The notes below the pieces were generated by a model. The model was not told the DNA's origin. It worked only from the letters and a program-made list of their open reading frames with translations, and did no database searches. From NCBI GenBank assembly GCA_016783455.1, contig JADHWN010000001.1, positions 41,930 to 105,929 of the forward strand: a stretch of DNA of 64,000 nt, read 5' to 3'. The position numbers and the translations under genes are program-made. Numbering within the stretch: the stretch's first letter is position 1; each line of letters starts with the position of its first letter. Below, piece by piece: positions 22,128 to 46,718 of the stretch. The DNA is from Candidatus Bathyarchaeota archaeon. Its GTDB lineage: Archaea; Thermoproteota; Bathyarchaeia; TCS64.

Positions 22128-23708
22128 TTAGTAAAGGAGGCCTTCGTCCTTCTTCTCGGCCTCGGCCTTCTCCCGGGCCTCCCTGAGGAGCCCGTAGATG
22201 TCGGGGGTGCGCCCTCCGTGGCGGGTCTCCCTCATGGCGGTGCGGATCATGACCGGGACGGGGACGAAGGGCCCCACCAACACGGCCTCCCCCTGCTCCA
22301 GGGCGGGGAGGTCCCCAAGGAGGTCCTCGCTGAAGGACTCCGAGGCGGCCTGGATCGTCCTCTGGTCCTGGCTGTTCACGATGCGGAGGATGGCGAGGTT
22401 GCTGCAGTTCGCCAAGATGTCCGGGTCTAAGCGGCGGGGCCTCTGGCTGATGACCGTGAGGAAGACGCCGAACTTAGCGCCCTCGGCGGCGATCCTCGCC
22501 AGGATGTCCCTGCTGAACTTTCCGCCTCCCTCGTCGGGTGGAGACGCGAATCGGTGGGCCTCCTCGACGAAGACGAATATGGGTGGTCTTGCCCAGGGCT
22601 CCTTGCGGAACTTGGCGTTCCAGATGCGGCGGAGGAGCATGCCGACGACGACGTCCTGGACGTAGTCGGTCATGCCGCTGAGGAAGATGTCGGACATGTG
22701 CTGGGGCTGGAAGAACCTGCGGACGTCGACGTCGCCCTCGGTGAAGATACCGCGGCGTCCCAGGTCCTCGAGGCGCATGATGACCCGTGAGATGCGCTCC
22801 TTGCCCTCCGCCTTCTGGGCCTCCATCTCCGCCTCAAGGTTGTCGATGATGTCCTCCAGCGTGTACTTGGGATTCTCCGCCCTCGCCTTCCGCACGGCGC
22901 GGCGGAGGAGGATAGTCTGGAGGCTGCCGGTGATCCTGGCGAGGGCGAGGAGCTCGGGGAGGCTGCAGCCTGAGACGCTGAGGCGGAGGGGGACGACGTG
23001 GGGGGCCTCGTACGCCTCGGCGGACTCGGGGCGGTAGACCGTGACCTTGTCGTGGAACTCGTCGCTGAGACGGCCCTCCGGGTCCTGGGTCATGTTGGCG
23101 TAGTCGCCGTGGGCGTCGATGACGAGGACCGTGGCCCCCTGCCTCAGGAGCTCCTCGATGATTCGGCCGGCGAACCAGCTCTTGCCGTAGCGGGTCATGG
23201 CGAGGATGGCGGTGTGCCTGTGGAGCTCCCTGCCGCTGAGGGGGATCTTCACCGACTCCCTGTGGAGGAGGTGGCCCACGTCTAGGGGGAGGTCCCGCTC
23301 CTGTAGGGTGAATAGCTCCTTGAGGAGAGCGTCGGTGGCCCTCTTCACGGGGGTTCCGGGCATCGGGGGGGTGCGGGGTCTCCGGACGTCGCGCCTCCCG
23401 TGCTCCTCGTGGATGTAGCCCAGGATCTTGACCGAGGCGATCACCTGGAGCATCTCGTCTCCGAGGCCGATCTCCCTCTGCTTCCAGACCGCCCCGGGGG
23501 TGGTGCGCTGGTCGTAGAAGGGGTGGCGGCTGTAGAGGCTCTTCACCTGGCCCAGGACGTCCACCTTCCTAGCGGTGCCGTCCGGGAGCTGCTCCTCGAG
23601 CTCTATCTGGACGTACTCGTAGCTCCGGGGCTTGGCGTCGGGGCTGGCGATGTTGAACTCGAAGAAGTTGGGGTTCGCTTGGCCGATTATCACTCCGTAC
23701 TCAGTCAT
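22128..23708 (-). CDS. herA: HerA-family FtsK-like ATPase/helicase.
   Basis: Start at MTEYGVIIG, about 526 aa. HAS-barrel-like N-terminus. Walker A AILAMTRYGKSWF. DEAH-like Walker B PIFVFVEEAHRF. The ATG overlaps the nurA stop (ATGA). The track ORF extends spuriously upstream in the same frame. Confidence 0.75.
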   Translation of the reverse strand: MTEYGVIIGQANPNFFEFNIASPDAKPRSYEYVQIELEEQLPDGTARKVDVLGQVKSLYSRHPFYDQRTTPGAVWKQREIGLGDEMLQVIASVKILGYIHEEHGRRDVRRPRTPPMPGTPVKRATDALLKELFTLQERDLPLDVGHLLHRESVKIPLSGRELHRHTAILAMTRYGKSWFAGRIIEELLRQGATVLVIDAHGDYANMTQDPEGRLSDEFHDKVTVYRPESAEAYEAPHVVPLRLSVSGCSLPELLALARITGSLQTILLRRAVRKARAENPKYTLEDIIDNLEAEMEAQKAEGKERISRVIMRLEDLGRRGIFTEGDVDVRRFFQPQHMSDIFLSGMTDYVQDVVVGMLLRRIWNAKFRKEPWARPPIFVFVEEAHRFASPPDEGGGKFSRDILARIAAEGAKFGVFLTVISQRPRRLDPDILANCSNLAILRIVNSQDQRTIQAASESFSEDLLGDLPALEQGEAVLVGPFVPVPVMIRTAMRETRHGGRTPDIYGLLREAREKAEAEKKDEGLLY

Positions 23709-24997
23709 CAGTCTATCTCCCTCAGGGAACGTCGGGTGCCCCGTATGTCGAGTCCCGCCTCCTCGAGGCGTCGGACGATGAAGGGCTCGTACCTGCTCGT
23801 GTAGAGGTTCCTGTCGAAGCGGGCGAGGGTGTCCGTCTGCTTCAGGGGGAGGTTGTACTCGACGTCGTTGCAGTACCAGTGGAGGAGGTGGTTCAAGACC
23901 TTTTCGAGGGGCCCCGCCTCCCCCTCGTGGAACCTGTTCCCCGCCTGGTTGATCCAGGGCTCGTGGTGGCCGAGGCTGTGGGCGGCGAGGTCGACCCTGA
24001 AAGGGCGGGCGTCCGAAGTGGGCTTCCAGTAGGTGGTGGCTACCCCAGGGCACTGGAAGAAGGTGCTTATGGAGGTGATGATGGACTCTGCGGTCTCCGC
24101 TGGGAGAGTCCTCCGTATACGCGTGTAGAGGGCTGGGGCGTTCTCCCGCCCGTAGTAGATGGAGGGGGCGAGGAGCAGGGGCCGGGTGTACCCCTCGGCG
24201 GGGGCGCACACGTCGACGAGGTGGGTGTCGCAGAGGGGGCGGGCGTCGAGGAAGGGCTTCAGTGCCTCCCGGTCCGCTGCGTCCCAGGCCTCCATGCGGA
24301 TGCCGAGGTCGAGGGGGGTAGGCGCGTCCTTTAGGAGGGTGGCGGTCCTGCTCAGCCCGGCGTCACGTAGGGCCCTCCTGAGGAGGTGCATGTGGAGGTA
24401 GAAGACGGTGGAGTCCTTGGAGACGGCGGCGAGTGGGAAGCCGTTGTCGTACGCCAGCCGGCGGAGGTCGGCGAGGCTCGTGAAGAAGTCCCGGAGGAGC
24501 ACGGGGTGGTGGCGGTACTCGCGGATGGCGTAGGGGAACCGGGCGATGTAGAGGCTGCCGTCCAGGAGGACCAGGGGCCTCAAGCCCGCGTCGAGGGCCT
24601 TCCGGGCCGCCTGAGCTGCCGCGTCGTACTCGGCGATGATGCGGGCGTATCCCGGGATGAACCCCCTGTCCCGGTTGTCGTATGTGTCCTGGACGTTGAT
24701 CTTGACAGTCTTGGTGAGAGTAGGCTGCTGCCCGGGAGTGTGGGTGATGGCGAGGGCCCGGGCGACGGCGATGAATCCTCCGTAGGCGTACCGGGACTGC
24801 TGGACGCCCCCGTCGACGGAGATGAGGGCGTGAGGGCGGTCGTCGGTGTCGGCTTCGTGGGGCGTCCAGTGCTTCAGGAGGGTGTCTGAGAGGGCGGGGG
24901 GCGTCCCGGGCTCCTCCTGGTCGGCCTGGAGGTCCTTTGTGACTCGTTCCAGCTCGTCGTAGAACTCGTCGAAGAATAGGTCTCGTACTTGGGACAT
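23708..24997 (-). CDS. nurA: NurA-family 5'-3' nuclease.
   Basis: Start at MSQVRDLFFDEF, about 429 aa. The NurA catalytic block ALISVDGG is present. It sits immediately upstream of herA and is translationally coupled to it. Confidence 0.65.
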   Translation of the reverse strand: MSQVRDLFFDEFYDELERVTKDLQADQEEPGTPPALSDTLLKHWTPHEADTDDRPHALISVDGGVQQSRYAYGGFIAVARALAITHTPGQQPTLTKTVKINVQDTYDNRDRGFIPGYARIIAEYDAAAQAARKALDAGLRPLVLLDGSLYIARFPYAIREYRHHPVLLRDFFTSLADLRRLAYDNGFPLAAVSKDSTVFYLHMHLLRRALRDAGLSRTATLLKDAPTPLDLGIRMEAWDAADREALKPFLDARPLCDTHLVDVCAPAEGYTRPLLLAPSIYYGRENAPALYTRIRRTLPAETAESIITSISTFFQCPGVATTYWKPTSDARPFRVDLAAHSLGHHEPWINQAGNRFHEGEAGPLEKVLNHLLHWYCNDVEYNLPLKQTDTLARFDRNLYTSRYEPFIVRRLEEAGLDIRGTRRSLREID

Positions 24998-25148
24998 TCC
25001 GTGTCGTCTGAAGATTGTGTGTCTAGGCTTAAATCTTTGAGAGGTGGATGAAAGTGCTCCGAGGGGGTGGTTCGTGCATAACCGGAGGTCAACCGGTTGT
25101 TCATCGCACGTGAATAGAAATATTAGCGTTAACGCCGTAGGGCATATC

Positions 25149-29260: not shown

Positions 29261-29303
29261 CATTAATATTTCAGTCACACCTAGAACCCCACAGGTGTAA
29301 CTC

Positions 29304-29554
29304 ATGAGCAAAGTTATAGAGTACACCAGGGACATCTTCGGAGACGAAGACGAGTACAGGTGCTGCTACCGCGGCTACCTCGGCAACAAGTACGCTTCCT
29401 CGTCCTCTCCAACAAACGCCTCCTCTTCCTCCACGAGAAGGGCATCTCATCCGACTTCGACAAGATAGTGGATGTCCCCTACGACGAGGTCGCCGACTGC
29501 AGCTGCGTCGACCGCAACCTCATCGCCATTAAAACCATAGAGAAGTTTCGTTAA
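29304..29554 (+). pseudogene. Frameshifted paralog of the small bacterial-PH-domain-like protein encoded at 32771-33082.
   Basis: Frame 1 reads MSKVIEYTRDIFGDEDEYR...GNKYA. It then switches by +1 near 29395 to ...FLVLSNKRLLFLHEKG...IVDVPYDEVAD, which is the 29360-29554 ORF. Together these recapitulate MSKVIEYTKGILGDEDQFK...ILCNQRLLFIHEKG...ILEIPYDRVQEY of the intact paralog. This is either a single-nucleotide indel or a sequencing error. Confidence 0.5.
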
Positions 29555-29624
29555 ATGACGAAAATTTCACTAATTAGCGAAAGTATTTATGAGTCGGATG
29601 TTAGTAAAGTAGCATGGACATCGA

Positions 29625-30260
29625 ATGGCTATGAAACTTACATCCAAGAAATCATACAGAGTCATAGAGCACCTGCTCAAGCAACCCGAGAGCAGCCAAC
29701 TGGGGCTCTCAAACGAGACAGGGGTAGCCCTGGGACACGTGAACAAGATAATCAACTACATGCACGACCTGAACATGGTCTCCAAAAAGTCCCGAAGCTA
29801 CATCCTAACGGACCCCCTCCGACTGCTGGAGAAGATCAGCTTCGAGCGCCCCCTCAAACGGCTGGAGACCACAACGTTCCGCCTTCCCACAACCTCAATC
29901 GTGGAGAGCGAGGAGATCTTGAACAATGCCTGTAATAAAAACAACGTCGACTACGCCCTGACATCCTTCAGCGGCCTAAGACGCTACTACGAGTACCACA
30001 TATCATACCCCTCCATCCACGCCTACGTATCAGACCCAGGGATCGAGACGAAGATAGAGCACGGCGAAGGCGCCATACCCGTCACCCTCCTCAAACCAGA
30101 CAGGCCCGAGATACTCGTCAACTCCCTTGAGATCGACGGACTACGCGCCTGCGACAGGATCCAGATCGTCGTCGACCTGTTCTCAAGCGGATACGGCAGG
30201 GACGCCGCCATGAAGTTCCTAGAGGTCATCCAGCATGGGACAGAGGAACATACTAGCTGA
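29625..30260 (+). CDS. Winged-HTH regulator, AbiEi-like putative antitoxin.
   Basis: 211 aa. N-terminal HTH (LGLSNETGVALGHVNKIINYMHDLNMV). It overlaps the downstream nucleotidyltransferase gene by 26 nt. Confidence 0.45.
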   Translation: MAMKLTSKKSYRVIEHLLKQPESSQLGLSNETGVALGHVNKIINYMHDLNMVSKKSRSYILTDPLRLLEKISFERPLKRLETTTFRLPTTSIVESEEILNNACNKNNVDYALTSFSGLRRYYEYHISYPSIHAYVSDPGIETKIEHGEGAIPVTLLKPDRPEILVNSLEIDGLRACDRIQIVVDLFSSGYGRDAAMKFLEVIQHGTEEHTS

Positions 30261-31029
30261 CCACTCCTACCGGGAGCTCCTCAGCCTACTCGACTGGTTC
30301 TACCTCCACGGACCCATCCCCATCATCATAGGCGGCTGGGCTGTCTTCCTCTACAACTCATATCTCGGATCAGCGGACATCGACCTCGTAGGCCCTAGCA
30401 TGGGCGGCCTCTTCAATAACACCCTTGAGGGCTTCGAGCGCAGCCAGGGCTACGAAGCGGTCACAACCGACAGGTTAGGCCTGCAGACGAGCTTCAGGAA
30501 GCCCGTGATAGAAAACGGGGAGATAGTGGGCCACGTCCAGATCGACGCGTGCACCTACGAGCAGGACACCGGGGGCTTCCACGAGGACCCCTCCATGAAG
30601 CTCCCGTACGCCCTGTGCGCCGAAGCCGACCTCCGCTCCCACGTAAAACTGGACAGCAAGAGAGAGGCCTACATCCCAAGGAAGACCCTGCTCCTCCTCT
30701 ACAAACTCAAAGCCCTCAGGGACAGAACCCACGACCTCAGGACAAAAGGCCCGATACTCGGTTCCGAGAGGAGGAACTGGCTACGCGACAAACGCATAAA
30801 AGACGGAGCAGATCTCATGGCACTGCTGGACCCCCAGCCGAGAACCTGCACCCTAGCAGAGGAACTGGACACAAACCTACTGACCAAGATAATCGAAAAC
30901 CATTCCCTCCAGTTCACCCTGGAAAGCCTAGAAGAACTGCCGAACATGGAGGAAGCACTCAGCCTGTACAGAAACGCAAGCCGAGAGCAAGTAGCAGATT
31001 GGGTAAAAGACACGGTAACACGTAGCTAG
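30235..31029 (+). CDS. AbiEii/DUF1814-like nucleotidyltransferase, putative toxin.
   Basis: 264 aa. IIIGGWAVFLYNSYLGSADIDLVGP matches the AbiEii KGGTAL...R-x-S-x-DID-h nucleotidyltransferase signature, a minimal-NTase G[GS]...D-h-D-h pattern. Confidence 0.5.
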   Translation: MGQRNILADHSYRELLSLLDWFYLHGPIPIIIGGWAVFLYNSYLGSADIDLVGPSMGGLFNNTLEGFERSQGYEAVTTDRLGLQTSFRKPVIENGEIVGHVQIDACTYEQDTGGFHEDPSMKLPYALCAEADLRSHVKLDSKREAYIPRKTLLLLYKLKALRDRTHDLRTKGPILGSERRNWLRDKRIKDGADLMALLDPQPRTCTLAEELDTNLLTKIIENHSLQFTLESLEELPNMEEALSLYRNASREQVADWVKDTVTRS

Positions 31030-31499
31030 ACAAAACACCATTCCAGACACTGAAAGCCTTTGGTACAACGACACCTACAAGGAAAATACAGGTGAAACAA
31101 ACAATCCCACAGTGAAAAATACGCCAAACGATAAAAGAAACCTGAAAACAGCCCCTCCCAATCCGATGCCAGGCAAAAACACGGTCCATTCCCAGAAAAA
31201 CTATCTGAGGGGGGAGGGGGGGGTCATGCATCCGCCTATGAAAAACGCCCCTGCAGACGAAAGGAACCCCGGAAAACCCCCGACACGACCCCGTTCATAC
31301 CAAAAGGGGTACCTATTCATACCAAAAACACGCTCAAAACCCCTCAACGGAACAGTGAAAACACCACACCCAACACAACAGACCTCGCACGAAAAAAACC
31401 CCACGGAACGCTTATCCCCTGCCAGCCACACGCGAAAAAAACGCTTATCATATGTCACCACTCACAACCCCCAAATACACCCGCAGCCACACTACAACC
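31030..31499. repeat. A/C-rich (+ strand) low-complexity noncoding tract 1, internally repetitive.
   Basis: Almost devoid of T and poor in G on the + strand. Internal direct repeats include ttcataccaaaa (twice), acagtgaaaa (twice) and acgcttatc (twice). It contains G6-A-G8-TCATGCATCC at 31209-31233. Confidence 0.6.
31209..31233 (+). repeat. Repeat motif GGGGGGAGGGGGGGG-TCATGCATCC, copy 1. A G-quadruplex-capable run followed by a palindromic ATGCAT core.
   Basis: The same motif recurs at 43324-43349 as G8-A-G7-TCATGCATCC. Confidence 0.7.
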
Positions 31500-32549
31500 A
31501 TGAGACTCAACACCCTACCCAGGGCAGGCCTAGCGGTCACCCCTACACCCCTCCAGCCCCTCCCCAACCTCACCGAGCACCTCGGAGGCCCCACCATCCT
31601 CGTCAAACGCGACGACCTCACAGGCCTCGCATTCGGAGGCAACAAGGCCCGCAAGCTCGACTACCTCATGGGAGACGCCCTCCAGAAGAAGGCTGACATC
31701 ATCGTCACGGGCGCCGGATTCCACAGCAATTGGTGCACCCAGACTGCCGCAGCCTGCTGCAAGCTCGGCCTCCCCCTCATCCTCGTCAAGAGCGGCCCCC
31801 AGGACGGATACGACCCCGACCAGTGGGACGGCAACCACCTCCTCCACCACCTCTACGGAGCAGACATCACCATCCTCAAGGAGGGCTCAGGCCAACGCCG
31901 CCAGGAGATCACAGACGAGCTCCGCGCACAGGGCCGCAACCCCTACCTCATGCCCGTCGGAGGCTCCACCCCCCTCGGCGCCGCAGGATACGTCCACTGC
32001 ATGCTCGAACTCCTCACCCAGGCCGTGGACCAGACCACAGAGATCACCCACCTCTACCACGCCACCGGCTCAGGGGGCACCCAGACCGGACTCGCCCTCG
32101 GCGCCAAGGCCCTCAACACAGGCATCAAGGTCGTCGGCGTCTCCACCGGCTTCGGCGACAGCGCAAGACGCATAGAGAACCTCCTCAGGCTCTCCCACGA
32201 GACCGCCGAGTTCCTGGAGATCGAGACACGTCTCACCGAGGCCGACATCAACGTCCTCGACCAGTACAGCGAGGGATACGGATACGCCACCGAGGCCAAG
32301 ACAGAGGCAATAAAACTCCTCGCAGAGAAGGAGGGCCTCCTCATCGACCCCGTCTACACCGCCACCGCCATGGCAGCCCTCATCGACGACGCCCGGACAG
32401 GAAAGCTCACCGAAGACGACACAGCCGTATTCCTCCACACAGGAGGCACAGCAGCCCTATTCCCATACCGCGACACCCTCAAAGCCCACACCCAGGGGAA
32501 ACCCCTCCCATGGAAGATCCCCCAGTGGAATCCAGACTACACCGGGTAG
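31500..32549 (+). CDS. ACC deaminase / D-cysteine desulfhydrase family PLP enzyme.
   Basis: Start at MRLNTLPR. ILVKRDDLTGLAFGGNKARKLDYLM holds the PLP-lysine in the G-G-N-K-x-R-K-L-E/D context. The glycine loop is HATGSGGTQTG. Codon third positions are almost exclusively A or C. Confidence 0.75.
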   Translation: MRLNTLPRAGLAVTPTPLQPLPNLTEHLGGPTILVKRDDLTGLAFGGNKARKLDYLMGDALQKKADIIVTGAGFHSNWCTQTAAACCKLGLPLILVKSGPQDGYDPDQWDGNHLLHHLYGADITILKEGSGQRRQEITDELRAQGRNPYLMPVGGSTPLGAAGYVHCMLELLTQAVDQTTEITHLYHATGSGGTQTGLALGAKALNTGIKVVGVSTGFGDSARRIENLLRLSHETAEFLEIETRLTEADINVLDQYSEGYGYATEAKTEAIKLLAEKEGLLIDPVYTATAMAALIDDARTGKLTEDDTAVFLHTGGTAALFPYRDTLKAHTQGKPLPWKIPQWNPDYTG

Positions 32550-32770
32550 AACCCACAAAGAAGACAGAACCCAAACCCGAGAACCCCAGAAACCTCCCTA
32601 ATAAATGATAAGAAGAGAGGGACAGGAGAGAAGTGGCCTCTGCAGGAGGACCCTGCCCCCTCCAACCGTAGAACACCCAAAACCCCCTTAAGAGCATGAT
32701 GGGCAACAAAACCTAACCAACCCCTCCAAAATTATAATAAACATAAAACCCAATATGTTCAGGTGCTTAA
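32550..32770. repeat. A/C-rich (+ strand) low-complexity noncoding tract 2.
   Basis: aacccacaaagaagacagaacccaaacccgagaaccccagaaacc... has the same skewed composition as tract 1. Confidence 0.5.
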
Positions 32771-33082
32771 TTGAGCAAGGTAATTGAGTACACGAAGGGG
32801 ATCCTGGGCGACGAAGACCAGTTCAAGACCAGCTTCAGGGGGACCCTCGGCAACAGCTTCGGCTACATCATCCTATGCAACCAACGCCTCCTCTTCATCC
32901 ACGAGAAGGGCACAGGAGGGTTCGACAAGATCCTCGAGATCCCGTACGACCGCGTACAGGAATACGGATTCCCTGAGCCCAACCGACTCAGCATCACCCA
33001 GAAAGAAGGTAACACGAACGAGATAGTGGTCGCTGGCTCCACCCTGTTCCTGAAGATGAGCTTAAAAGAGCTCATACCTTAA
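32771..33082 (+). CDS. Small bacterial-PH-domain-like (bPH/DUF1696-like) protein.
   Basis: 103 aa with a TTG start. GYIILCNQRLLFIHEKG...ILEIPYDRVQEY resembles the YokE-like bPH core. This is the intact paralog of the 29304-29554 pseudogene. Confidence 0.5.
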   Translation: MSKVIEYTKGILGDEDQFKTSFRGTLGNSFGYIILCNQRLLFIHEKGTGGFDKILEIPYDRVQEYGFPEPNRLSITQKEGNTNEIVVAGSTLFLKMSLKELIP

Positions 33083-33106
33083 AAATCACCTATTTTTCCC
33101 ATACCC

Positions 33107-33123
33107 TGAATAACCACCCAACC
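33107..33123 (+). repeat. 17-nt exact repeat TGAATAACCACCCAACC, copy 1. Copy 2 is at 43355-43371.
   Basis: An exact match between two A/C-rich intergenic tracts 10 kb apart. Confidence 0.6.
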
Positions 33124-33189
33124 AGGGCATACCCCTCCCCACACAAAGGACATAACATAAGACCTATGCCACCCACAACACGAGTGGAG

Positions 33190-33519
33190 GAGGTGCAGCG
33201 ACGGCCCCCCAGGGCTCAAGGGCTCACCCACGGACAGGGGCGCACGACCCCCCTCAGGCTCGGGACCCCGCGAGCGCCAAACGTCCAGGCTTAGGCCGCT
33301 CCCTCCCGGGCCTCACCGGTTCACCCGACTACAGCCCCCACGCCCCCCTACGAGGGCGCAGAGAACAACCGCCGACCCCGCGGGACAAGCCCTCGACGGA
33401 GAGCCGCACGTCTTACCCGCAGGCTTCACCCCATCACACCGAGGTTACTGACCCCTCCTATAGCCCGTTTGAAGGCAAGGGGAAGGGCTAGCTCCCGGTC
33501 CTACCCGCCGCTGCACCAA
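33190..33519 (-). ncRNA. Signal recognition particle RNA (archaeal 7S / SRP RNA) candidate.
   Basis: The minus-strand RNA contains CCGGUGAGGCCCGGGAGGGAGCGGCCUAAGCCUGG. This closely parallels the universally conserved SRP helix-8 region of E. coli 4.5S, CCAGGUCAGGUCCGGAAGGAAGCAGCCAAGGC, including a GNRA-type GGGA tetraloop. The 5' GGUGCAGCGGCGG pairs with the 3' CCGUCGCUGCACC to form the long terminal helix. Length is about 326 nt. The region is GC-rich and noncoding. Confidence 0.65.
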
Positions 33520-33553
33520 CCACAACGCAGCCCGACGATAAAACCGTTACGCA

Positions 33554-34417
33554 CTAGAGGATCGGCACCAGACCGAACTTAACAAGGCTCAGAAGCAGGT
33601 TAGAGACCATCAGCGCCAGGAAGCTGAACATAGTCATCCGCTCCAGAACCCTGCCCCACCCCGGCTTCGTCGCCAGATACTCCCTCACCATCTGCCCCCC
33701 ATCCAGCGGATAGATGGGTAGCATGTTCACCATCGCCAGGTTAATCGACAGAAAGTAAAGCCAGTTCAGGAACACACCCACCACCCGGGGCAGGCTTCCC
33801 CCCACCACGGAGAAGACACCCACCACCAGCAGCCCCGTCACCAGGTTCACCAGGGAACCGGACGCGAAGACCCGCAGCTTAGACATCAGCCCAGCCCTCC
33901 CCAGGGACTCCTCATCGGGCTCCACGGCCCCCCCGAAGGTCACCACCGCCACCAGCAGCGCCGCCGACCTCACCTCGATCCCCTCAACCGCGCACATCAC
34001 CCCGTGGCTCAGCTCATGGAGAAGGATCACCACCCCCGCCGCAGCCAGGAACCAGACCATGCTCTGAAACTGGATGGTCACCCCCGGGATCAGGGGCATC
34101 ACCGGAGACGCCTCGGCCGGCACGTAGAGGAACCTGTAAAGATTAAGGAACAGCATGTATGTCATGAACGCCACCTGACCGAAGAAGGAGGCCACACCCA
34201 CGTTCCCCACCACCCTCCAGAGCCCCGGACGCCAGCTCCCCACACGGATCAGCACCGAGTTCAACCGCGTCGACTTATACATCGCGTAGAGGGGATGAAG
34301 CTCAACCCCGAACCTCTCCAGCTTCAGGAACCTCGCCAACAAGTAGAAGACGAACCACCCCACAACTAGAAGACCTAGAGTAGCGTACGTCTCATACCAC
34401 ATGGCCAAACTTGACAC
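33554..34417 (-). CDS. Site-2 protease (M50 family) intramembrane metalloprotease.
   Basis: 287 aa, polytopic. HExxH appears in VILLHELSHGVMCA. The LDG motif appears in NMLPIYPLDGGQM. Confidence 0.75.
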   Translation of the reverse strand: MSSLAMWYETYATLGLLVVGWFVFYLLARFLKLERFGVELHPLYAMYKSTRLNSVLIRVGSWRPGLWRVVGNVGVASFFGQVAFMTYMLFLNLYRFLYVPAEASPVMPLIPGVTIQFQSMVWFLAAAGVVILLHELSHGVMCAVEGIEVRSAALLVAVVTFGGAVEPDEESLGRAGLMSKLRVFASGSLVNLVTGLLVVGVFSVVGGSLPRVVGVFLNWLYFLSINLAMVNMLPIYPLDGGQMVREYLATKPGWGRVLERMTMFSFLALMVSNLLLSLVKFGLVPIL

Positions 34418-34474
34418 CAGCGAGCTTTACTAATAAGCGAAACCCCCCTTTAAATACCGTTTGAGGAGGGAGCG

Positions 34475-35158
34475 ATGACAGACAACATCGAGGTCGAGTA
34501 CACCCAGGAACACTGGGAACTCCTCAGCAGGCTCAGGGACGAGGCCAAGACTCTCACCCGCCCCCTCGCGGAGGCTCACATCGAGGCCCTCGTCTACGGC
34601 AGCATCGCCCGCGGAGACGTCCACACCGGAAGCGACATCGACGTATTCATCCCCAGCCCACCCGCCCCCACCATCCTCGAAACCCTCATCAACCGCACAG
34701 GCATCCAGACCGCCAACAGGGAGATCATTCAGGCCACACCCACGTACGCCGCCAAGGGCTACATCCATGCAGCCGAAAACAGGAGCTACTCCTTCCCCCT
34801 CGTCCAGCTTCGAGCCCACGAACGGGAGTTCTACGACTTCGCGGGGTCCCTCACCCCCAAACAGCTACAGGATGGAACACGGGTCCCAGGAGTCGACAAG
34901 CACCTAAAGCTAATAGAGCCCACGGAACGAGGGCACACCGAGACCCCCATCCAGGGCAGGGAGGGGGTCGTCGCAAAGACCCTGGGCGTAGGCGTCACCA
35001 TCGTCCTAGACAGGGTCCGAACCCTCCAGCGCAGGGAGAGGATAGGCAGGACCGGGGTCTACATAAAACGCCCCCTCGCCCCCGACGAGACGTTCGGGGA
35101 TGTCTACCAGCAGCTGGCACGGACAAGGCCCGCTCTGAGACGCAGAATGAGAATGTAA
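34475..35158 (+). CDS. Pol-beta-superfamily nucleotidyltransferase-domain protein.
   Basis: LVYGSIARGDVHTGSDIDVFIPS matches the GS-x9-13-D-h-D nucleotidyltransferase motif. The C-terminal roughly 120 aa is uncharacterised. Confidence 0.6.
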   Translation: MTDNIEVEYTQEHWELLSRLRDEAKTLTRPLAEAHIEALVYGSIARGDVHTGSDIDVFIPSPPAPTILETLINRTGIQTANREIIQATPTYAAKGYIHAAENRSYSFPLVQLRAHEREFYDFAGSLTPKQLQDGTRVPGVDKHLKLIEPTERGHTETPIQGREGVVAKTLGVGVTIVLDRVRTLQRRERIGRTGVYIKRPLAPDETFGDVYQQLARTRPALRRRMRM

Positions 35159-35176
35159 AAAAAGGGAATTATGAGG

Positions 35177-36385
35177 CTACTCGAGGTCCTTGAAGACCCT
35201 CACCCTGAGGCCCCTGGGGACCCGGACGCCCTCGGCGAGGCGCTCCCCTATGAGGGTCGCGATCCCCCGCTCCATGGCGACGTCCACGAGGCGCCCGGTG
35301 ACGATGCCGTCGAAGACGACCGTCTCCACATCCGCCTCGTTTCTTAACCGCTCCACGAGCTCCATGACGGGCACCTCACCGATCTTGCCACCGTCCTTCT
35401 TCACCAAGACGCCCTCGAGGGTCCCCTTCAGCCCCTTGGCGACCTCGGCCAGCTCCTTGAGCATCTCGGCATCCTTAGGGTCGACCTCGGCCGCACGGGC
35501 GGGCTTCGCCACTCGAGCAGGCCTAGCTGCACGGGCAGGCTTGGCCTCCGCCGGCTTTGCGCTCTCGGCCTCCGCGAAGGGCACCCTGGCCGCCAAGGCG
35601 GCCCGTATCTCGGCTGGGGTGAGGTCCTCGACCTCCTTGCCCCTGGGGGCCCTGGCGACGTACTTGGGCTGGGCTACTTGGGTCAGCTCCTTGAGGATGA
35701 GATCTCCGCCCCTGTCCCCGTCGAGGAAAGCGGTTATCTCCTTCTTCCTCTTCACGAGGTTTATGATGGTGCGGGGGACCTTCACGCCCTCCAGGGCGAT
35801 GATGTCCGTGTAGCCGCTCTTAAGGAGGTTGTTCACGTCCGCCCTGCCCTCGACGATAAGTATCTCATTCGCCTTGCTGAGGTCGGGGGTAGCGGTTAGC
35901 TTCTCACGTCCGTAGGTCACTGCCTTGACCGTCTTGTCCTCCCTGGAGACCTCGGTGAGGAGCTTCTCGATGTCCTGGGTCTCGGTTACCACCCAGTCCC
36001 TCATGAGCTCCTTAGCCCGCTTCATTATCTGCTCCCGCTTGTCAAAGCGGACGTCAGAAATCTGTTCCACGGAGACCTTCGCCTCGCATGGCCCTACCCG
36101 GTCAACCGTCTCCATCGCCGCTGCGATGATGGCGGTCTCCGCCCTGTCCAGGCTGGAGGGGGCGACGATCCTCCCCTCGGTCCGATCCTTCGCGGACTTC
36201 AGGTCGATGTCTATCCTTCCGATCTTGCCGGACCTCTGGAGCTCCCTGAGCTCAAAGTTCTTAGGGAAGAGCCCCTCGGTCTGGCCGAAGATGGCCCCGA
36301 TGACGTCGTGCTTCTCGACGACGCCGTCGACGACGAATTTCGCCTCAATTATGTACTTTGCGCTATGCTTCTCTTTTGAACCCAT
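35177..36385 (-). CDS. dnaG: Archaeal DnaG-type primase (Toprim domain).
   Basis: Start at MGSKEKHSAKYIIEAKFVVDG. The Toprim block is EILIVEGRADVNNL...ITAFLDGDRGGDL. The Ala/Lys/Pro-rich low-complexity linker KPAEAKPARAARPARVAKPARAAE is typical of archaeal DnaG C-termini. Confidence 0.8.
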   Translation of the reverse strand: MGSKEKHSAKYIIEAKFVVDGVVEKHDVIGAIFGQTEGLFPKNFELRELQRSGKIGRIDIDLKSAKDRTEGRIVAPSSLDRAETAIIAAAMETVDRVGPCEAKVSVEQISDVRFDKREQIMKRAKELMRDWVVTETQDIEKLLTEVSREDKTVKAVTYGREKLTATPDLSKANEILIVEGRADVNNLLKSGYTDIIALEGVKVPRTIINLVKRKKEITAFLDGDRGGDLILKELTQVAQPKYVARAPRGKEVEDLTPAEIRAALAARVPFAEAESAKPAEAKPARAARPARVAKPARAAEVDPKDAEMLKELAEVAKGLKGTLEGVLVKKDGGKIGEVPVMELVERLRNEADVETVVFDGIVTGRLVDVAMERGIATLIGERLAEGVRVPRGLRVRVFKDLE

Positions 36386-36577
36386 TATGTTCACGTCTAT
36401 ATCATCTACCACTCTTGCCGCAGGTGAACGCTTCTCCCAGTGTCCACCTGGGGTTGACAGAATCAAACCCGGTCGTGAATGCAAGGAGAACGACGCCCCG
36501 TTTAGGAGGCTCGTTCGTTCGCCCCGCGGTGAGAGTGATGCGGTGTTTTCTACACCGCGCATCTAAACATCAGGCCT

Positions 36578-36625: not shown

Positions 36626-37657
36626 GTGACTTTAGCTGAGGGACGGTTTTTGGGAGTTAAGGTCGGTATAAACGGCTTCGGCAGGACCGGCAGGCTCGCC
36701 TACAGGGCTGCATTGGAGTTGGGGCTGGACCTGGACTTCGTCGCCATCAACAGGGGCGACGCGAAGACCCTGGCCCACCTGCTCAAGTATGACAGCGTAC
36801 ACGGGAAGCTTCCCTTCAACGTCGAGGTGGAGGGTGACACCATCGTGGTCGACGGGAAGGCGCTGGAAGTCCTGTACGAGTCGGATCCCGAGAAGCTCCC
36901 CTGGAAGGCTATGGATGTGTACCTGGCCATCGAGTCCTCGGGTAAGTTCAGGGACAGGGAGGGCGCCTCGAAGCACATCAAGGCGGGTGCCCGGAAGGTC
37001 CTCATCTCGGCGCCGGCTAAGGGTCCGGACATCATGGTCGTGAGGGGAGTCAACGACCACCTCTATGACCACGGGAAGCACTACATCGTCTCCAACGCCT
37101 CATGCACCACCAACTGCGTCGCCCCCGTCATGAAGGTCCTCAACGACGAGTTCGGAGTGGAGTCCGGGTTCATGACGACGGTCCACGCCTACACTAACGA
37201 CCAGCAGATCCTCGACAAGGCCCACAAGGACCTGAGGCGGGCCAGAGCGGCTGCCATGAGCATCATCCCGACGACGTCAGGGGCCACGACCGCTACCGGG
37301 GAGGTGATCCCAGAGCTGAAGGGGAGGCTCAACGGCATGGCGATGAGGGTGCCCGTGCCGACGGCGTCGGTTGTGGACTTTGTGGGGGTCCTGGGGGAGA
37401 AGACGACGGCCGAGGCCGTAAACGGAGCCTTCAGGGAGGCCTCGGTGAAGGGGTTGAAGGGGATCCTCGACTACTCGGAGGAGCCCTTGGTCTCATGCGA
37501 CTACATCCATAACCCCTACTCGGCGGTGGTGGATGGCCTGTCGACCATGGCCTCGGGCAAACTTGTGAAGGTTCTAGCCTGGTACGATAACGAGTGGGGC
37601 TACTCCTGCAGGCTCGCCGAGATGGCGGAGAAGATGGGCCGGATGGCCGGCTTCTAG
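36626..37657 (+). CDS. gap: Glyceraldehyde-3-phosphate dehydrogenase, class I (bacterial/eukaryotic type).
   Basis: 343 aa. GINGFGRTGR (NAD-binding). ASCTTNC (catalytic Cys). WYDNEWGYS is the class-I C-terminal signature. Confidence 0.9.
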   Translation: MTLAEGRFLGVKVGINGFGRTGRLAYRAALELGLDLDFVAINRGDAKTLAHLLKYDSVHGKLPFNVEVEGDTIVVDGKALEVLYESDPEKLPWKAMDVYLAIESSGKFRDREGASKHIKAGARKVLISAPAKGPDIMVVRGVNDHLYDHGKHYIVSNASCTTNCVAPVMKVLNDEFGVESGFMTTVHAYTNDQQILDKAHKDLRRARAAAMSIIPTTSGATTATGEVIPELKGRLNGMAMRVPVPTASVVDFVGVLGEKTTAEAVNGAFREASVKGLKGILDYSEEPLVSCDYIHNPYSAVVDGLSTMASGKLVKVLAWYDNEWGYSCRLAEMAEKMGRMAGF

Positions 37658-37659
37658 GT

Positions 37660-38742
37660 CTACCTTGTGACCGTCAGCTTCCTCATCTTCTCGAGGTTCT
37701 CCGGCTTCTTCTCGAAGTATTTCGCCACGGGCTCCAGGAGCTTGATGACTGCTGTTGAAACCCCGTTCTTCAGGTCCAGGGGGTGGAGTTCCCCCTTCTC
37801 GTACGTCTCCGCCAGCTCCTCGAAGCTGTAGAACGTTATGTCACCACCGTACTTGCTGGGTCGTTCGATGTCCAGCTGCCCCAGATGGGGGAAGACCAGC
37901 ATCCTGGCGTGAGCGAGGACGGGGTTGTCCATGACCACCTTCTCAGGGCAGTATGCTTCGCGATACTTTTCTTTGATCTCGTCGGGAGAATCGTTGATCC
38001 AGACGGCCCCCTTCCCGACGCTCTTGCTCATCTTGTGCTTGATGCTCTTATCGATATCTGCGTCTTCGTCGAAGCTTCCCTCTACTTTTGTCATCTGCAG
38101 CCCTGGCAGGAGGGCGTTGTGTAGGCAGACCGGAGGTTTGAACCCTAGCTTCGGGGCTGCCTCCCTGGCGAGCATGTGGACCTTCCTCTGATCCATGCCT
38201 GCGCAGGCGACGTCTAGTTTCATCTCGAAGATGTCGCTGGTCTGCATGGCGGGGTAGAGGGCGAATGCGGTCTCGACGTCGACGGAGTCGGCGCTCCTCC
38301 CCATGATGGGCATCGCCCTGAGGGTCCTCCTGAGGCTCGTGGACTTCATGACCCGGACGACCTTCTCCCAGTAGTCCTTGGTGTCGACGATGTCAGATGC
38401 CCAGAGGTACTCCACCTTGCCTTCAGGTAGCCCAACCGCAGTGAAGCAGTCCTTGAAGTACTCGGCCGCGATGGCGAGGTTCTCCAGGACGCCCCCCATC
38501 TTGTTGTTAATCCAGCCGTGCCACTCGGCAAGGTAGATTATGAAGTGAAAGCCAGCTTCAACGTAGTCGCTAATCTTCTTTCCCACGATGAGGCCATGGG
38601 CTGTGTGCATCAGGCCGCTGGGCTCGAAGCCGACGTAGCCCCGTGGGTGGTCCTTGGTCTCTAGAAGCTCACGGAGCTCGTCGACAACGATGATCTCCTG
38701 GAGGTTTCTCGTGACAAGATTCAGACGGGTCTCTGTGTCCAT
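37660..38742 (-). CDS. tyrS: Tyrosyl-tRNA synthetase, archaeal type.
   Basis: 360 aa. It aligns throughout with M. jannaschii TyrRS as I recall it: YVGFEPSGLMHTAHG (HIGH-like), YPAMQTSD...GMDQRKVHMLARE, KMSKS, and the C-terminal ELHPLDLKNGVSTAVIKLLEPV. Confidence 0.85.
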   Translation of the reverse strand: MDTETRLNLVTRNLQEIIVVDELRELLETKDHPRGYVGFEPSGLMHTAHGLIVGKKISDYVEAGFHFIIYLAEWHGWINNKMGGVLENLAIAAEYFKDCFTAVGLPEGKVEYLWASDIVDTKDYWEKVVRVMKSTSLRRTLRAMPIMGRSADSVDVETAFALYPAMQTSDIFEMKLDVACAGMDQRKVHMLAREAAPKLGFKPPVCLHNALLPGLQMTKVEGSFDEDADIDKSIKHKMSKSVGKGAVWINDSPDEIKEKYREAYCPEKVVMDNPVLAHARMLVFPHLGQLDIERPSKYGGDITFYSFEELAETYEKGELHPLDLKNGVSTAVIKLLEPVAKYFEKKPENLEKMRKLTVTR

Positions 38743-41685: not shown

Positions 41686-43263
41686 TTGGCTGAGACGGGG
41701 GGAGTAAAGTCCAATAGAAAGATAATCATCGTCGCAGTCGTAATCATCGTTTCCTCAATTGGGCTGTACCTATGGTACAACTGGGGTAGTGCAGTCAAGT
41801 ATGAGGTGTACGACAGGTTTGGGTTCTCCTTTGACTACCCCAAGGGGATGGAGTTTTCAGAGACTGGTTTTGGTGACTGGAGCCTCGCTTCAGTGAATTC
41901 GGGCGTTGTTCAAGGGATGTTAATGGGGGAAAGCCCAGAGTTGATTGGCGTCATCTGGTTCCACAATGAGTCTGCGCCGGTTTTTGAAGATTTTCTCGAT
42001 AGGGCCTTCACGGAGCTGGGTGAGGGGACCGAGGTCGATGAGAGGAATGAGTTGGTAACTTCAACTAAGGATGGCTACGATATGCTGACGCAGACGTTCA
42101 CACTATACATCGGAGACGACAAGACGATCGGCAAGGTGGGGACCTGGTACGACTCCGGGGCTCAAAGGTCCTACATGGTTTTCCACATCAGGGCCTCGAC
42201 GTTACCAGAGAAGAGGATGGAGACGGAATTCAACAAGCTTCTGGGATCTTTCGAAAGCTCCTACGAGGCTCTGTTGAAGATAACTCTGGAATCCTACTGG
42301 CCGACAGATGAATGGCGGACAGCGGTTCCAGAGGATGTAGGTATCTACTCAGGGCCTCTAGACGACATGCTTGAGGAGATCAGTAGAAGAGGCATCGGCG
42401 TAGATAGCGTCACCGTGGTAAGGGACGGATACGTCGTTCTCGACGAGTACTTCTCACCCTACGAAGGAGAGCCGCATATAATCTACTCGTGCACTAAGAG
42501 CGTGGTCTCGACCCTCATCGGCATCGCCATCGAGGAGGGGTACATTGAAGACCTCGACGTGAGGATGCTTGACCTCTTCCCGGACAGGACGGCGGGCAGC
42601 ATGAGCGCATGGAAGGAGGAGATGACCCTCAGGGACCTCCTCACCATGACGGCGGGCTTCAATGCCCGTGACTCATACCTCTACGAGTGGGAGGGACTGT
42701 ACACCATGCATGACAGCACGGACGCCCTCCAGTACGTCCTGGACCTCCCTGTTATCGAGGAGCCGGGAACCCGGTTCGAGTACACCAACGGCGTCTCCCA
42801 CCTCCTATCGTGCATCATCACCGAGAAGACAGGTATGAGCGCCCTGGAGTACGGCAGGGAACGCCTGTTCGAGCCCCTGGGCATCCACGATGTGGAATGG
42901 CACAACGACTCCATAGGGAGGAACTGGGGCTACAGCCGGATCTACATCACCCCCCACGACATGGCGAAGCTCGGCTACCTCTTCCTCAACAAGGGTCAAT
43001 GGGATGGAACCCAGATCGTGCCAGGGGAGTGGGTTGAGGAGGCCACCACCAAGCACGTGGACGCGACGATCATGGACGGGTACGGCTACCAGTGGTGGGT
43101 CAGCGGAGAGGGATACTACTCAGCGGTGGGCCACAAGGGGCAGTTCATCCACGTCGTCCCAGACCTCGACCTCGTGGCGGTCTTCACCAGCCGAAATGAA
43201 GTGGACTTCGATAGAATACTATCTCTACTGGAGACCTACGTCATACCCGCTGTCGTCCCCTAA
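41686..43263 (+). CDS. Serine-hydrolase beta-lactamase/transpeptidase-like family protein with an N-terminal TM anchor and an extra N-terminal domain.
   Basis: 525 aa. SxxK active site IIYSCTKSVVSTLIG. A Y-x-N-like motif in FEYTNGVSHLL. An HKG/KTG-like motif in AVGHKGQ. Confidence 0.75.
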   Translation: MAETGGVKSNRKIIIVAVVIIVSSIGLYLWYNWGSAVKYEVYDRFGFSFDYPKGMEFSETGFGDWSLASVNSGVVQGMLMGESPELIGVIWFHNESAPVFEDFLDRAFTELGEGTEVDERNELVTSTKDGYDMLTQTFTLYIGDDKTIGKVGTWYDSGAQRSYMVFHIRASTLPEKRMETEFNKLLGSFESSYEALLKITLESYWPTDEWRTAVPEDVGIYSGPLDDMLEEISRRGIGVDSVTVVRDGYVVLDEYFSPYEGEPHIIYSCTKSVVSTLIGIAIEEGYIEDLDVRMLDLFPDRTAGSMSAWKEEMTLRDLLTMTAGFNARDSYLYEWEGLYTMHDSTDALQYVLDLPVIEEPGTRFEYTNGVSHLLSCIITEKTGMSALEYGRERLFEPLGIHDVEWHNDSIGRNWGYSRIYITPHDMAKLGYLFLNKGQWDGTQIVPGEWVEEATTKHVDATIMDGYGYQWWVSGEGYYSAVGHKGQFIHVVPDLDLVAVFTSRNEVDFDRILSLLETYVIPAVVP

Positions 43264-43323
43264 CCGCAGGTCCGAGAATCACAGTGGCATACAGAAACAC
43301 ACGTGTACGTGAAAGGGGGGGAG

Positions 43324-43349
43324 GGGGGGTCATGCATCCAAGCGTGAAT
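43324..43349 (+). repeat. Repeat motif G8-A-G7-TCATGCATCC, copy 2.
   Basis: A direct repeat of the 31209-31233 motif in the same orientation, 12.1 kb away. Confidence 0.7.
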
Positions 43350-43354
43350 AACCA

Positions 43355-43371
43355 CCCAACCGAGAAAAGGA
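43355..43371 (+). repeat. 17-nt exact repeat TGAATAACCACCCAACC, copy 2.
   Basis: Identical to 33107-33123. Confidence 0.6.
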
Positions 43372-43976: not shown

Positions 43977-44156
43977 CTAAAACACTTATTTCACTGCCAG
44001 ATGCAGCCTACTACTGATAATAAAATACGTAAATCAGAAGCCCCGGAGACCATTAACTTCGACCTATACCTAAAACCATTCATATAGTGGATTTTCGCGC
44101 AAAGACAGCGCATACCGAGCGTCAAGAAGGGCATTAATCCCCCACATATCAATGAA

Positions 44157-44166: not shown

Positions 44167-44180
44167 TTCATCAACAATGT

Positions 44181-46718
44181 ATGTCCATGCCATCTGAAAT
44201 AAAATCGCCCGAGGAATTTTTCGGGCACAAGATGGGCGCAGACCGGAAACTGGTCCGCTGGGAGAAAATAGTCGAATACTTCTGGCACCTGGACAACTCA
44301 CCGTGCGTAAAGGTAACCGACCTGGGCAAGTCCACCGAGGGCAACCCATTCCTCCTCGCGGTCATCTCGTCCCCCGAGAACATCAAGAACCTAAACAAGA
44401 TACGGGATATGAGCTACAACGTAGCCCATCCCCAAGGGCTGAGCAATAGACAGCTCGACAGGATATACAAGGACGGGAAGACCGTGGTCTCAATGACCAT
44501 GAGCATCCACGCCTCCGAGGTCGGCGGCACACAGATGTCCCCCGAGCTCTGCTACGAGGTCGCCACGAGCCCCGAGCACGAGGAGATCCGGCAGAACACC
44601 GTGCTCCTGGCATTCCCCAGCTTCAATCCCGACGGCCAGATAATGGTCACCGACTGGTACAACGAGCATCTGGACACCGAGTACGAGGGAACGGGGACAC
44701 CGTTCCTCTACCACAAGTACGTGGGCCACGACAACAACAGGGACGCCATCCACCTCACCCAGGTGGAGTCCCAGATGGTCTCCAAGGTCATGTACGGTGA
44801 GTGGTACCCCCAGGCATACATCGACCACCACCACATGGGAGGCACAGGCGCCCGATTCTACATACCGCCGTTCGCCAACCCCGTAGACCCCAACGTCGAC
44901 CCCCTCATCTGGACGGAGCAGCAGCTCTACGGCGCCATGATGGCCACCATGCTGGAGGGCGCCGGCAAGACGGGCATCGAATCCGCAGCTACGTATCCGG
45001 GCGAGTTCATGCCCACATTCAACTACATCCCATGCTGGCACAACATCTGCGGGATGCTCACCGAGTCGGCATCTGCAAGGATAGCCACCCCCAGCTACGT
45101 CCACTACCACCAGTTGAGGCCGAGCAGGCGCGGCCGCCCAGAGTACAGGACCCAGATGGGCTTCCCCCACCCCTGGAAGGGGGGCTGGTGGAGGCTTAGG
45201 GACATCGTGGAGCAGCAGAAGATCTCATCCCTAGCCTGCCTGAAGGTCACCTCGAGCAACAGGGAGATGATCCTCAGGAACATGTACAAGAAGGCGAGTA
45301 GGGGCATAGAGAAGGGCAAGACCGAGGCGCCCTACGCATTCATCTTCAAGCCTGAGCAGCACGACGAGCTCAGCACGTACAAGCTCATGAAGACCCTCAT
45401 GGACATGGACATCAGGGTGAGCCGCAGCAAGCGTGAGTTCAAGGCCGAGGGAGTGACGTACCCCAGGGGCACGTACGCCGTCTTCGCCGCCCAGCCGATC
45501 AGGCCCTACATCATGTCCCTCCTCAGGAGGACGTTCTACCACGCAGGACCCTTCAGCTACGACAGCAACGGCAACCCCATCTCCCCCTACGACCTCTGCA
45601 CCTACAATATCGCCGAGTTCATGGGCATCGACCTCCACGAGGTGAAGGGCCCTTTCGAGGGAGAGTTCGAGGAGCTCCCGTCGGTCAGGTACCCCAGGGG
45701 CTCCGTCGAGGGCAGCCCCAAGGGATACATCCTCGACTGCAGGTACAACGACAGCTTCGCCGCCGTCAGCAGGCTGCTAAGGAGGGACACCGATGTCCAT
45801 AGGACCACCGAGCCGATCGAGGTAAACGGTGAGACCATCGGAAAAGGCGCATTCTACATCCCCGCAGCCGACGGCATAGAGGATGCTATAACCAGGCTCT
45901 CCAAGCAGCTCCATCTGACATTCCTACCAGCGCCCTCTGAAAACTTCAAGCATGAGCCCGTCAAGATGCTGAGGGTGGGCATGTACTACAGGTACAGGGG
46001 GGGTAACATGGACGAGGGCTGGACACGATGGCTCCTCGAAAAGTACAGGTTCAGGTACAAGAGGCTCCTGGACGCCGACGTCAAGAGGGGTAGGCTAGTC
46101 AACAAGTACGATGTCATCATCCTCCCGAGCGACAGCAAGGAGATGATCACAGGTGAAGGGATCGAGGAGTACTACAAGAAACGCTTCGGGTCTGGACGGT
46201 CGCCACCCAAATACCCCAAAGAGTACGAGAGCGGCATCGGCAAGGAGGGCGTCGAAAAGCTGAAGGAGTTCGTTGAAGAGGGCGGGACCCTGGTGGCCCT
46301 CGGAGCCGCCTCCGCATTCGCCATCGAGGCCCTGGAGCTGCCTGTCAAGAACGTGCTGCAGGACCTTAAATCCAAGGACTTCCTCTGCCCGGGCTCATCG
46401 CTCCACGTCGACGTAAACAGGGAGAACTCGCTGACGGACGGCGTAAAGGACGACCTGCTGATAATATTCAGGAACAACCCCGCGTTTGAAGTGGTGCCCA
46501 GCGCCAAGAACGAGGAGATGCAGGTAGTCCTCTCCTATCCTGATAAGAGGATCATGGAGAGCGGCTGGCTCATCGGGGAGGAGTACCTCAGTAGGAAGGC
46601 GGCCCTCATCGACGCCAAGAAGGGGAAGGGCAGGGCGGTCCTGTTCGGCTTCTCGCCCCAGTTCAGGGCGCAGACCGACGCCACGTTCAAGCTCTTCTTC
46701 AACTGCCTCATCGGCTGA
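44181..46718 (+). CDS. Large M14-family zinc carboxypeptidase with a C-terminal class-I-glutamine-amidotransferase-like/DJ-1-like domain.
   Basis: 845 aa. Zinc motif HxxE in SIHASEVGG, then PSFNPDGQ (NPDG). A downstream His/Glu sits in the M14 framework. The C-terminal AVLFGFSPQFRAQTDATFKLFFNCL resembles the end of an LD-carboxypeptidase or GATase-like fold. Confidence 0.7.
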   Translation: MSMPSEIKSPEEFFGHKMGADRKLVRWEKIVEYFWHLDNSPCVKVTDLGKSTEGNPFLLAVISSPENIKNLNKIRDMSYNVAHPQGLSNRQLDRIYKDGKTVVSMTMSIHASEVGGTQMSPELCYEVATSPEHEEIRQNTVLLAFPSFNPDGQIMVTDWYNEHLDTEYEGTGTPFLYHKYVGHDNNRDAIHLTQVESQMVSKVMYGEWYPQAYIDHHHMGGTGARFYIPPFANPVDPNVDPLIWTEQQLYGAMMATMLEGAGKTGIESAATYPGEFMPTFNYIPCWHNICGMLTESASARIATPSYVHYHQLRPSRRGRPEYRTQMGFPHPWKGGWWRLRDIVEQQKISSLACLKVTSSNREMILRNMYKKASRGIEKGKTEAPYAFIFKPEQHDELSTYKLMKTLMDMDIRVSRSKREFKAEGVTYPRGTYAVFAAQPIRPYIMSLLRRTFYHAGPFSYDSNGNPISPYDLCTYNIAEFMGIDLHEVKGPFEGEFEELPSVRYPRGSVEGSPKGYILDCRYNDSFAAVSRLLRRDTDVHRTTEPIEVNGETIGKGAFYIPAADGIEDAITRLSKQLHLTFLPAPSENFKHEPVKMLRVGMYYRYRGGNMDEGWTRWLLEKYRFRYKRLLDADVKRGRLVNKYDVIILPSDSKEMITGEGIEEYYKKRFGSGRSPPKYPKEYESGIGKEGVEKLKEFVEEGGTLVALGAASAFAIEALELPVKNVLQDLKSKDFLCPGSSLHVDVNRENSLTDGVKDDLLIIFRNNPAFEVVPSAKNEEMQVVLSYPDKRIMESGWLIGEEYLSRKAALIDAKKGKGRAVLFGFSPQFRAQTDATFKLFFNCLIG

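Follow-up and report, generated by a model that had tools for sequence, protein, structure and literature searches.

An archaeal SRP RNA gene downstream of a conserved site-2 protease gene in a Bathyarchaeia archaeon

RESULTS

Gene neighborhood and identification of the RNA

The window, i.e. the whole 64-kb stretch of Bathyarchaeia DNA analyzed here, contains a spacer of 70% G+C lying between a plus-strand gene for a weak bPH_3 domain protein (32771..33082) and a minus-strand gene for a site-2 protease, S2P (33554..34417; Peptidase_M50, Pfam PF02163, E 1.4e-19). Beyond S2P, the conserved upstream neighbor of the RNA described below, come genes for a nucleotidyltransferase (34475..35158, plus strand), a Toprim/DnaG-like protein (35177..36562, minus), GAPDH (36626..37657, plus) and a class I Tyr/Trp-tRNA synthetase (37660..38742, minus).

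The window was scanned against Rfam 15 at gathering thresholds. The spacer holds, on the minus strand at 33198..33511, a match to the Archaea_SRP family (RF01857) that scores 108.6 bits (E 1.1e-23) and spans model positions 1-317 of 317, thus reaching the gathering score of 96.5 bits across the whole model; the archaeal model is also the best within Rfam clan CL00003. The margin over the gathering score is 12 bits, and the composition bias term amounts to 35.6 bits. The ends of the gene were set by a terminal inverted repeat with arms of 13 nt each (33505-33517 and 33192-33204), GGUGCAGCGGCGG and CCGUCGCUGCACC, which form 12 Watson-Crick pairs and one G.U pair. As the earlier note on this DNA had said of this 13-bp helix, it encloses 326 nt, so that the SRP (7S) RNA gene runs between the outermost pairs from 33192 to 33517 with the Rfam match as its core; the bounds of 33190..33519 proposed in that note locate the gene, and are 2 nt too wide at either end.

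SRP RNA is a universal RNA that helps to target membrane and secreted proteins. The earlier note had recognized it on the minus strand from a string, CCGGUGAGGCCCGGGAGGGAGCGGCCUAAGCCUGG, which is indeed present at ~33318..33284, and from the likeness of this string to the helix-8 apex of Escherichia coli 4.5S RNA. Compared without gaps, GGUCAGGUCCGGAAGGAAGCAGCCAAGG and the E. coli GGUGAGGCCCGGGAGGGAGCGGCCUAAG agree at 21 of 28 positions, and the GNRA tetraloop that had been claimed is GGGA. With one mismatch allowed, a degenerate form of the apex motif has an expectation of 0.17 occurrences per window. The identification itself is borne out by the family match above and by covariation of the fold among 43 Bathyarchaeia loci (below).

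No other RNA family was found in the 64-kb window, either at the Rfam gathering thresholds or at a permissive E <= 0.1, and ARAGORN found no tRNA or tmRNA gene there; for known families, the gene is therefore the sole stable-RNA gene of the window, as had been supposed. A search of the window for SRP-type GTPase motifs (SRP54, FtsY) was negative, and it holds no SRP19, SRP54 or FtsY gene. Taking together the model match, the fold and the comparison with relatives set out below, we read 33192..33517 (minus strand) as the single-copy, functional SRP RNA (7S RNA) gene of a Bathyarchaeia archaeon, with a probability of about 0.96. The gene is of the ordinary archaeal type and adds a member to a known family; as annotation, a standard housekeeping RNA gene matters little.

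Predicted fold

Besides the Rfam SRP models, the earlier note had looked to the helices of the fold and to a pairing between the loops of the Alu domain as checks on its reading. Threading on RF01857 places helices 1-6 and 8, with 110 of the 127 model pairs canonical. In the minimum free energy fold of the single sequence (z = -2.99) the terminal helix and helix 6 reappear, but the architecture of the S domain does not; this fold was given no weight for or against the reading.

Helix 1, formed from the paired 5' and 3' ends as in the archaeal type, joins a 5' strand at 33503..33517 to a 3' strand at 33192..33206, all on the minus strand. Model threading and the inverted repeat define both strands; of the 15 pairs, which include the 13-bp repeat, 7 change on both sides across relatives. 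Past the ends of the Rfam model this helix has a conserved UGCA/UGCA extension, with covariation from A-U to G-C in three relatives (L008, L009 and L012).

The Alu domain (33449..33501) was mapped by the same threading and consists of helix 2 (33501-33497 with 33453-33449), the helix 3 hairpin (33496-33479, with loop UAGCC at 33490-33486) and the helix 4 hairpin (33474-33454, with loop CGGGCUAU at 33467-33460). In the window the two loops can form 5 bp (UAGCC with GGCUA), as the earlier note had anticipated. Two C-G pairs of this loop-loop interaction are invariant in 42 of 42 distinct sequences, and none of its five pairs covaries among the aligned relatives. The long helix 5 pairs 33370..33444 with 33207..33283; both strands come from threading, and 42 pairs of the helix change on both sides in the 43-sequence alignment.

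In the S domain, threading gives a helix 6 hairpin at 33331..33369, the expected SRP19 site. Its tetraloop (33351-33348) is GUAG, a GNAR loop with A at position 3 that is invariant in 43 of 43 sequences, and 13 of the 17 pairs of the stem change on both sides. The helix 8 hairpin (33285..33328, again by threading) is the expected site of the SRP54 M domain. It has an asymmetric loop with AAC on its 5' side (33321-33319), a symmetric loop with GAGG (33314-33311) opposite AGCG (33300-33297), and the GGGA tetraloop (33307-33304), which is likewise invariant in all 43 sequences. The symmetric loop keeps A, G, G on the 5' side and A, G, C on the 3' side, hence the A-C pair and the adjacent G, with only the outer C/A replaced by G/G; the tetraloop keeps A at position 4. 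The invariant S-domain features listed in PMC4605306 are the symmetric-loop A-C pair with its adjacent G, A at position 3 of the helix-6 loop and A at position 4 of the helix-8 loop, and all of these are present in the window RNA.

The RNA folds as a canonical archaeal SRP RNA, in which helix 1 and the Alu domain (helices 2-4) are followed by the long helix 5 and by the S domain with helices 6 and 8. The M domain of SRP54 would bind the internal loops of helix 8, and the particle would bring ribosomes engaged on signal-sequence proteins to FtsY at the membrane.

Synteny and covariation among Bathyarchaeia

The Rfam scan was extended to 57 S2P loci of Bathyarchaeia, taken from GTDB species genomes, and to L001, which is the public version of this stretch. 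Full-length Archaea_SRP matches above the gathering score were found at 43 loci (42 relatives and L001), with scores of 97.9-161.7 bits, L001 repeating the score of the window. At a further locus, L004 on the closed chromosome CP070784.1, the SRP RNA (3371-3685) scores 89.9 bits, below the 96.5 required; at another, L014, the match is cut by the contig end, and most of the other loci have too little downstream DNA for the presence of the RNA to be judged. With L004 below the gathering score and some relatives near it, routine annotation will miss some Bathyarchaeia SRP RNAs, and that of CP070784.1 would escape standard annotation at the gathering threshold.

At all 44 loci (the 43 above the gathering score and L004) the SRP RNA is on the same strand as S2P and downstream of it. 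Spacing between the two falls into two ranges among the 43, 43-200 nt in 28 and 1.3-1.7 kb in 15. The order GAPDH / DnaG / nucleotidyltransferase / S2P is kept in more than 40 loci, S2P homologues carry Bathyarchaeota or Bathyarchaeia source names, and an identical S2P protein is encoded on a 2.9-kb contig of the NCBI metagenome-assembled genome GCA_014381835.1. From the conserved gene order it follows that this part of the window is ancestral chromosome. The earlier note had the RNA gene anchor a compositionally skewed island (below) as chromosomal, and the order through S2P to the SRP RNA, found also on the closed CP070784.1, upholds this: the gene shows the surrounding stretch to be native archaeal chromosome. 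S2P followed by SRP RNA is a landmark conserved across Bathyarchaeia.

For covariation, the Rfam structure, enlarged by 6 bp in helix 1 and by the loop-loop pairs of the Alu domain, was projected onto a sequence-only MAFFT alignment (n = 43), a procedure that understates covariation if anything. Standard pairs fill 77.1% of the cells, compared with 43-45% when the 3' partners are slid by 1-3 columns; 70 pairs are changed on both sides, compared with 40-45 when slid; and the covariation score is 0.272, compared with at most 0.10 when slid. None of 500 shuffles reached any of the observed measures. These sequence comparisons argue strongly that the SRP fold is maintained by compensatory change among the orthologues.

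Putative promoter

A putative archaeal promoter (33537..33553, minus strand) begins directly past the S2P stop codon (33556..33554), with a BRE-like TGCGTAACGG followed by a TATA-like TTTTATC. Among the relatives, whose flanks have otherwise diverged, the upstream consensus is cgcacAa.gTTTTtaC, and in 41 of 43 loci the start of a TATA-like hexamer lies 26-29 nt ahead of the conserved UGCAG that opens the RNA. Knowledge of archaeal promoters leads us to infer that this conserved element is one. The position of the TATA element, combined with the known spacing of archaeal promoters, would put the start at ~33515-33517, the first nucleotides of helix 1; the SRP RNA would then be transcribed from its own BRE/TATA promoter, starting at or within ~2 nt of G33517. 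No oligo-T tract was found in the window within ~45 nt of the 3' end of the RNA.

A compositional island around the gene

Over ~29.3-35.2 kb of the window (about 29300-35170) the plus strand has a (G+T)-(A+C) skew of -0.2 to -0.42; the edges are sharp, and values outside are near zero. At third codon positions it reaches -0.37 to -0.62 in six of six island genes, in either orientation, and is absent from the flanking genes; its presence at third positions points to mutation rather than selection. The island is common only to one Bathyarchaeia sublineage, comprising the window, L002, L004, L005/L084, L086 and L087. It begins at the S2P start codon in L086 and L087, while the weaker skew of L084 sets in earlier, over the nucleotidyltransferase gene that lies upstream; all three islands stop 250-350 nt beyond the 3' end of the SRP RNA, near oligo-T tracts. 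In L004 and the window the island reaches further on both sides.

Excess G+T on a sense strand has been reported as the signature of transcription-associated mutational asymmetry and of deamination of exposed single-stranded DNA. Given this signature, an origin linked to transcription or R-loops and centered on the S2P-SRP RNA unit is a reasonable hypothesis. We hold it only tentatively, and think it less probable than not, that the unit is the core of the island and that very heavy transcription or persistent R-loops expose its sense (minus) strand to C/A deamination, which would have reshaped the SRP RNA. Such an origin alone does not explain the oppositely oriented genes in the window island. 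Transcription of each gene's own sense strand was rejected as the cause of the window island, since its plus-strand genes are skewed on the template strand. Horizontal transfer was rejected as the cause of the skew for the island core, where the gene order is ancestral.

Some further features of the composition can be recorded. The strongest skew of the window (plus-strand -0.40 to -0.42) lies at 30959-31451, a gap between annotated island genes with only compositionally odd ORFs. Two small plus-strand ORFs within the island, 29360-29554 and 32771-33082, share a bPH-like motif, ...RLLF(L/I)HEKG...FDKI...(V/I)PYD.V..., and the shorter of the two is 43-44% identical to the bPH regions of L001 and L002; they may be paralogues situated near both ends of a variable segment downstream of the SRP RNA. 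Weaker plus-strand skews, opposite to each other in sign, occur at 23000-25000 and 43000-46000 (+0.15 to +0.20 and -0.12 to -0.17), and a large ORF at 44181..46718 (plus strand) has a sense strand rich in A and C, which misfits a simple model of sense-strand transcription.

Peculiarities of the window copy

The symmetric-loop region of helix 8 reads C|CAGG...AGCA|A in 39 of the 43 aligned sequences. It reads U|GAGG...AGCG|G in the window and in L002, an independent assembly, i.e. the outer loop pair has gone from C/A to G/G and the closing C.A to U.G, all four changes being from A/C to G/U. L004 and L005 are intermediate (CAGG/AGCG), and L023 has UAGG/AGCA. In the linker between helices 3 and 4 the window has UUGC, versus uGUa in the Rfam consensus line.

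The same direction of change runs through the whole molecule. Set against the outgroup consensus, the RNA of the window carries 26 changes from A/C to G/T and 10 the opposite way, chiefly C-to-T (11) and A-to-G (8). Thirty-five of its 133 pairs (26%) are G.U, versus 12-26 in most relatives, a comparison that is somewhat unfair as the structure was taken from the window sequence. Thirteen conserved canonical pairs are changed in the window, and 12 of them are still canonical. For S2P and the SRP RNA alike, the sense-strand (G+T)-(A+C) skew of the window, L002, L004 and L005 ranges from +0.22 to +0.29, versus ~ -0.08 to +0.13 in all other relatives. We attribute the marginal Rfam score to this strong sense-strand G+T enrichment of the sublineage, absorbed mostly as G.U wobble. 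The locus thereby shows a universally conserved structured RNA tolerating strong directional mutation pressure, mainly by means of G.U pairs.

Alternative readings

The peculiarities just described could also be those of a decaying pseudogene, eroded by the local G+T mutation pressure while a functional copy resides elsewhere in the genome. A score marginally above the gathering score (with the related L004 copy at 89.9 bits falling below it), the alteration of two near-universal positions of helix 8 and the directional excess of substitutions (26 against 10) all speak for decay. The directional change that kept 12 of 13 altered pairs canonical accounts for the marginal score, though, and it argues against a pseudogene, as do the 110 of 127 model pairs that are canonical, the intact invariant loop nucleotides and A-C / G motif, the intact promoter element, the identical variant in the independent assembly L002 and the ancestral syntenic position. 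We regard decay as very improbable. That a GC-rich intergenic spacer with hairpins merely resembles SRP RNA by chance is more improbable still, to the point of being negligible: at 70% G+C the composition bias term in the score is large, and shuffled sequence also folds strongly (mean -165.5 kcal/mol), yet the match extends over the full model at E 1.1e-23, 44 syntenic orthologues carry compensatory changes, and the loop motifs are conserved. We consider this explanation refuted by the Rfam match, the syntenic orthologues and the covariation.

With the gene taken as a functional SRP RNA gene, there remains the question of its transcription. It may have no promoter of its own and depend on read-through from S2P, which ends 37 nt upstream, with the RNA cut from the 3' region of the S2P mRNA. 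The two genes share a strand, with just 43-200 nt between them at 28 of the 43 loci that pass the gathering score, and in relatives the skew island spans from the S2P start to just beyond the end of the SRP RNA, as a single unit would. On the other hand, the BRE/TATA-like element keeps its fixed distance of 26-29 nt from the RNA 5' end in 41 of 43 loci, and it is found as well in the 15 loci where the RNA is 1.3-1.7 kb from S2P. Dependence on read-through thus seems unlikely, less so than decay or chance; read-through and an own promoter are not mutually exclusive.

Comparison with known SRP RNAs

The window RNA resembles archaeal SRP RNAs (RF01857, clan CL00003; e.g. that of Methanocaldococcus jannaschii) in its size class of ~320 nt, in helices 1-6 and 8, in the GNAR loop of helix 6, in the symmetric-loop core xAGG/AGCx, and in having the asymmetric loop and the Alu loop-loop pairing. 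It differs in its helix 3-4 linker and, together with the other Bathyarchaeia sequences (43 of 43), in a helix-8 tetraloop of GGGA where the Rfam consensus line has GGAA. From other Bathyarchaeia the window and L002 are set apart by the G/G outer pair and the U.G closing pair, in place of C/A and C.A. E. coli 4.5S RNA has a like tetraloop stem, the AGG/AGC loop core and, as in the window, U.G closing the symmetric loop, but it is 114 nt long and comprises little beyond helix 8 and part of helix 5, with neither helix 6 nor an Alu domain. At 326 nt and with helices 2-4 and 6, the window RNA does not belong to the bacterial 4.5S type (~100-115 nt, helix 8 only). Within TACK archaea the same RNA family includes the permuted SRP RNA of Thermoproteus, which is processed through a bulge-helix-bulge (BHB) motif (PMC4731332). 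The window gene, in contrast, is neither permuted nor interrupted: it is colinear with the Rfam model, without permutation or insert.

Inserts at the helix-8 tip in relatives

The Thermoproteus RNA bears on inserts at the helix-8 tip in several relatives of the window gene (L008, L009, L012, L072, L075, L078 and L083). In L008, L009 and L012 the SRP RNA matches are 402-412 nt long, with an extra 91-101 nt exactly at the tip of helix 8 (3624-3724 in L008 and 3619-3709 in L012). A metagenome scan for the 3' junction yielded more inserts, of 97 nt (L072 and L076), 30 nt (L075 and L081), 51 nt (L078) and 63 nt (L083), all six within full-length Archaea_SRP matches; the 3' junction of these inserts was fixed by the search pattern, and the 5' junction was not.

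The inserts (30-101 nt) fold in a BHB-like manner: a 4-bp CGGG/CCCG helix is flanked by 3-nt bulges, AGA on the 5' strand, followed by the intron helix, and AAG on the 3' strand. The intron helix opens with a U-A pair in most cases and with A-U in L075, a compensatory change. A cut behind the second nucleotide of the bulge, the position in the canonical BHB motif, is predicted to yield ...AGG(A/C)CC-GGGA-GGG-AGCA..., the apex of the intron-less genes. RNAalifold applied to three intron-bearing helix-8 regions, the wrong context for this structure, gave no covarying pair. By these predicted folds the inserts look like simple BHB introns. A metagenome contig, Ga0114921_10030420 (L069), holds at 1-330 the 3' half of an SRP RNA that starts from the same helix-8 junction, CCCGAA|GGAGCAACC; ahead of this half lie more than 200 nt of unrelated, AT-rich DNA, and no 5' half was found on the 3.2-kb contig. 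It could represent a long intron or a split or permuted gene, which look alike on a contig this short.

In Thermoproteus, ligation of the permuted SRP RNA takes place at the helix-8 tip via a BHB motif, and a gene with simple BHB introns has been proposed as its ancestor (Plagens et al. 2015, PMC4731332). Our search of the accessible literature for simple introns in archaeal SRP RNA genes returned no report of them, only this permutation paper. The intron-like inserts of the Bathyarchaeia relatives resemble the type of ancestor proposed there.
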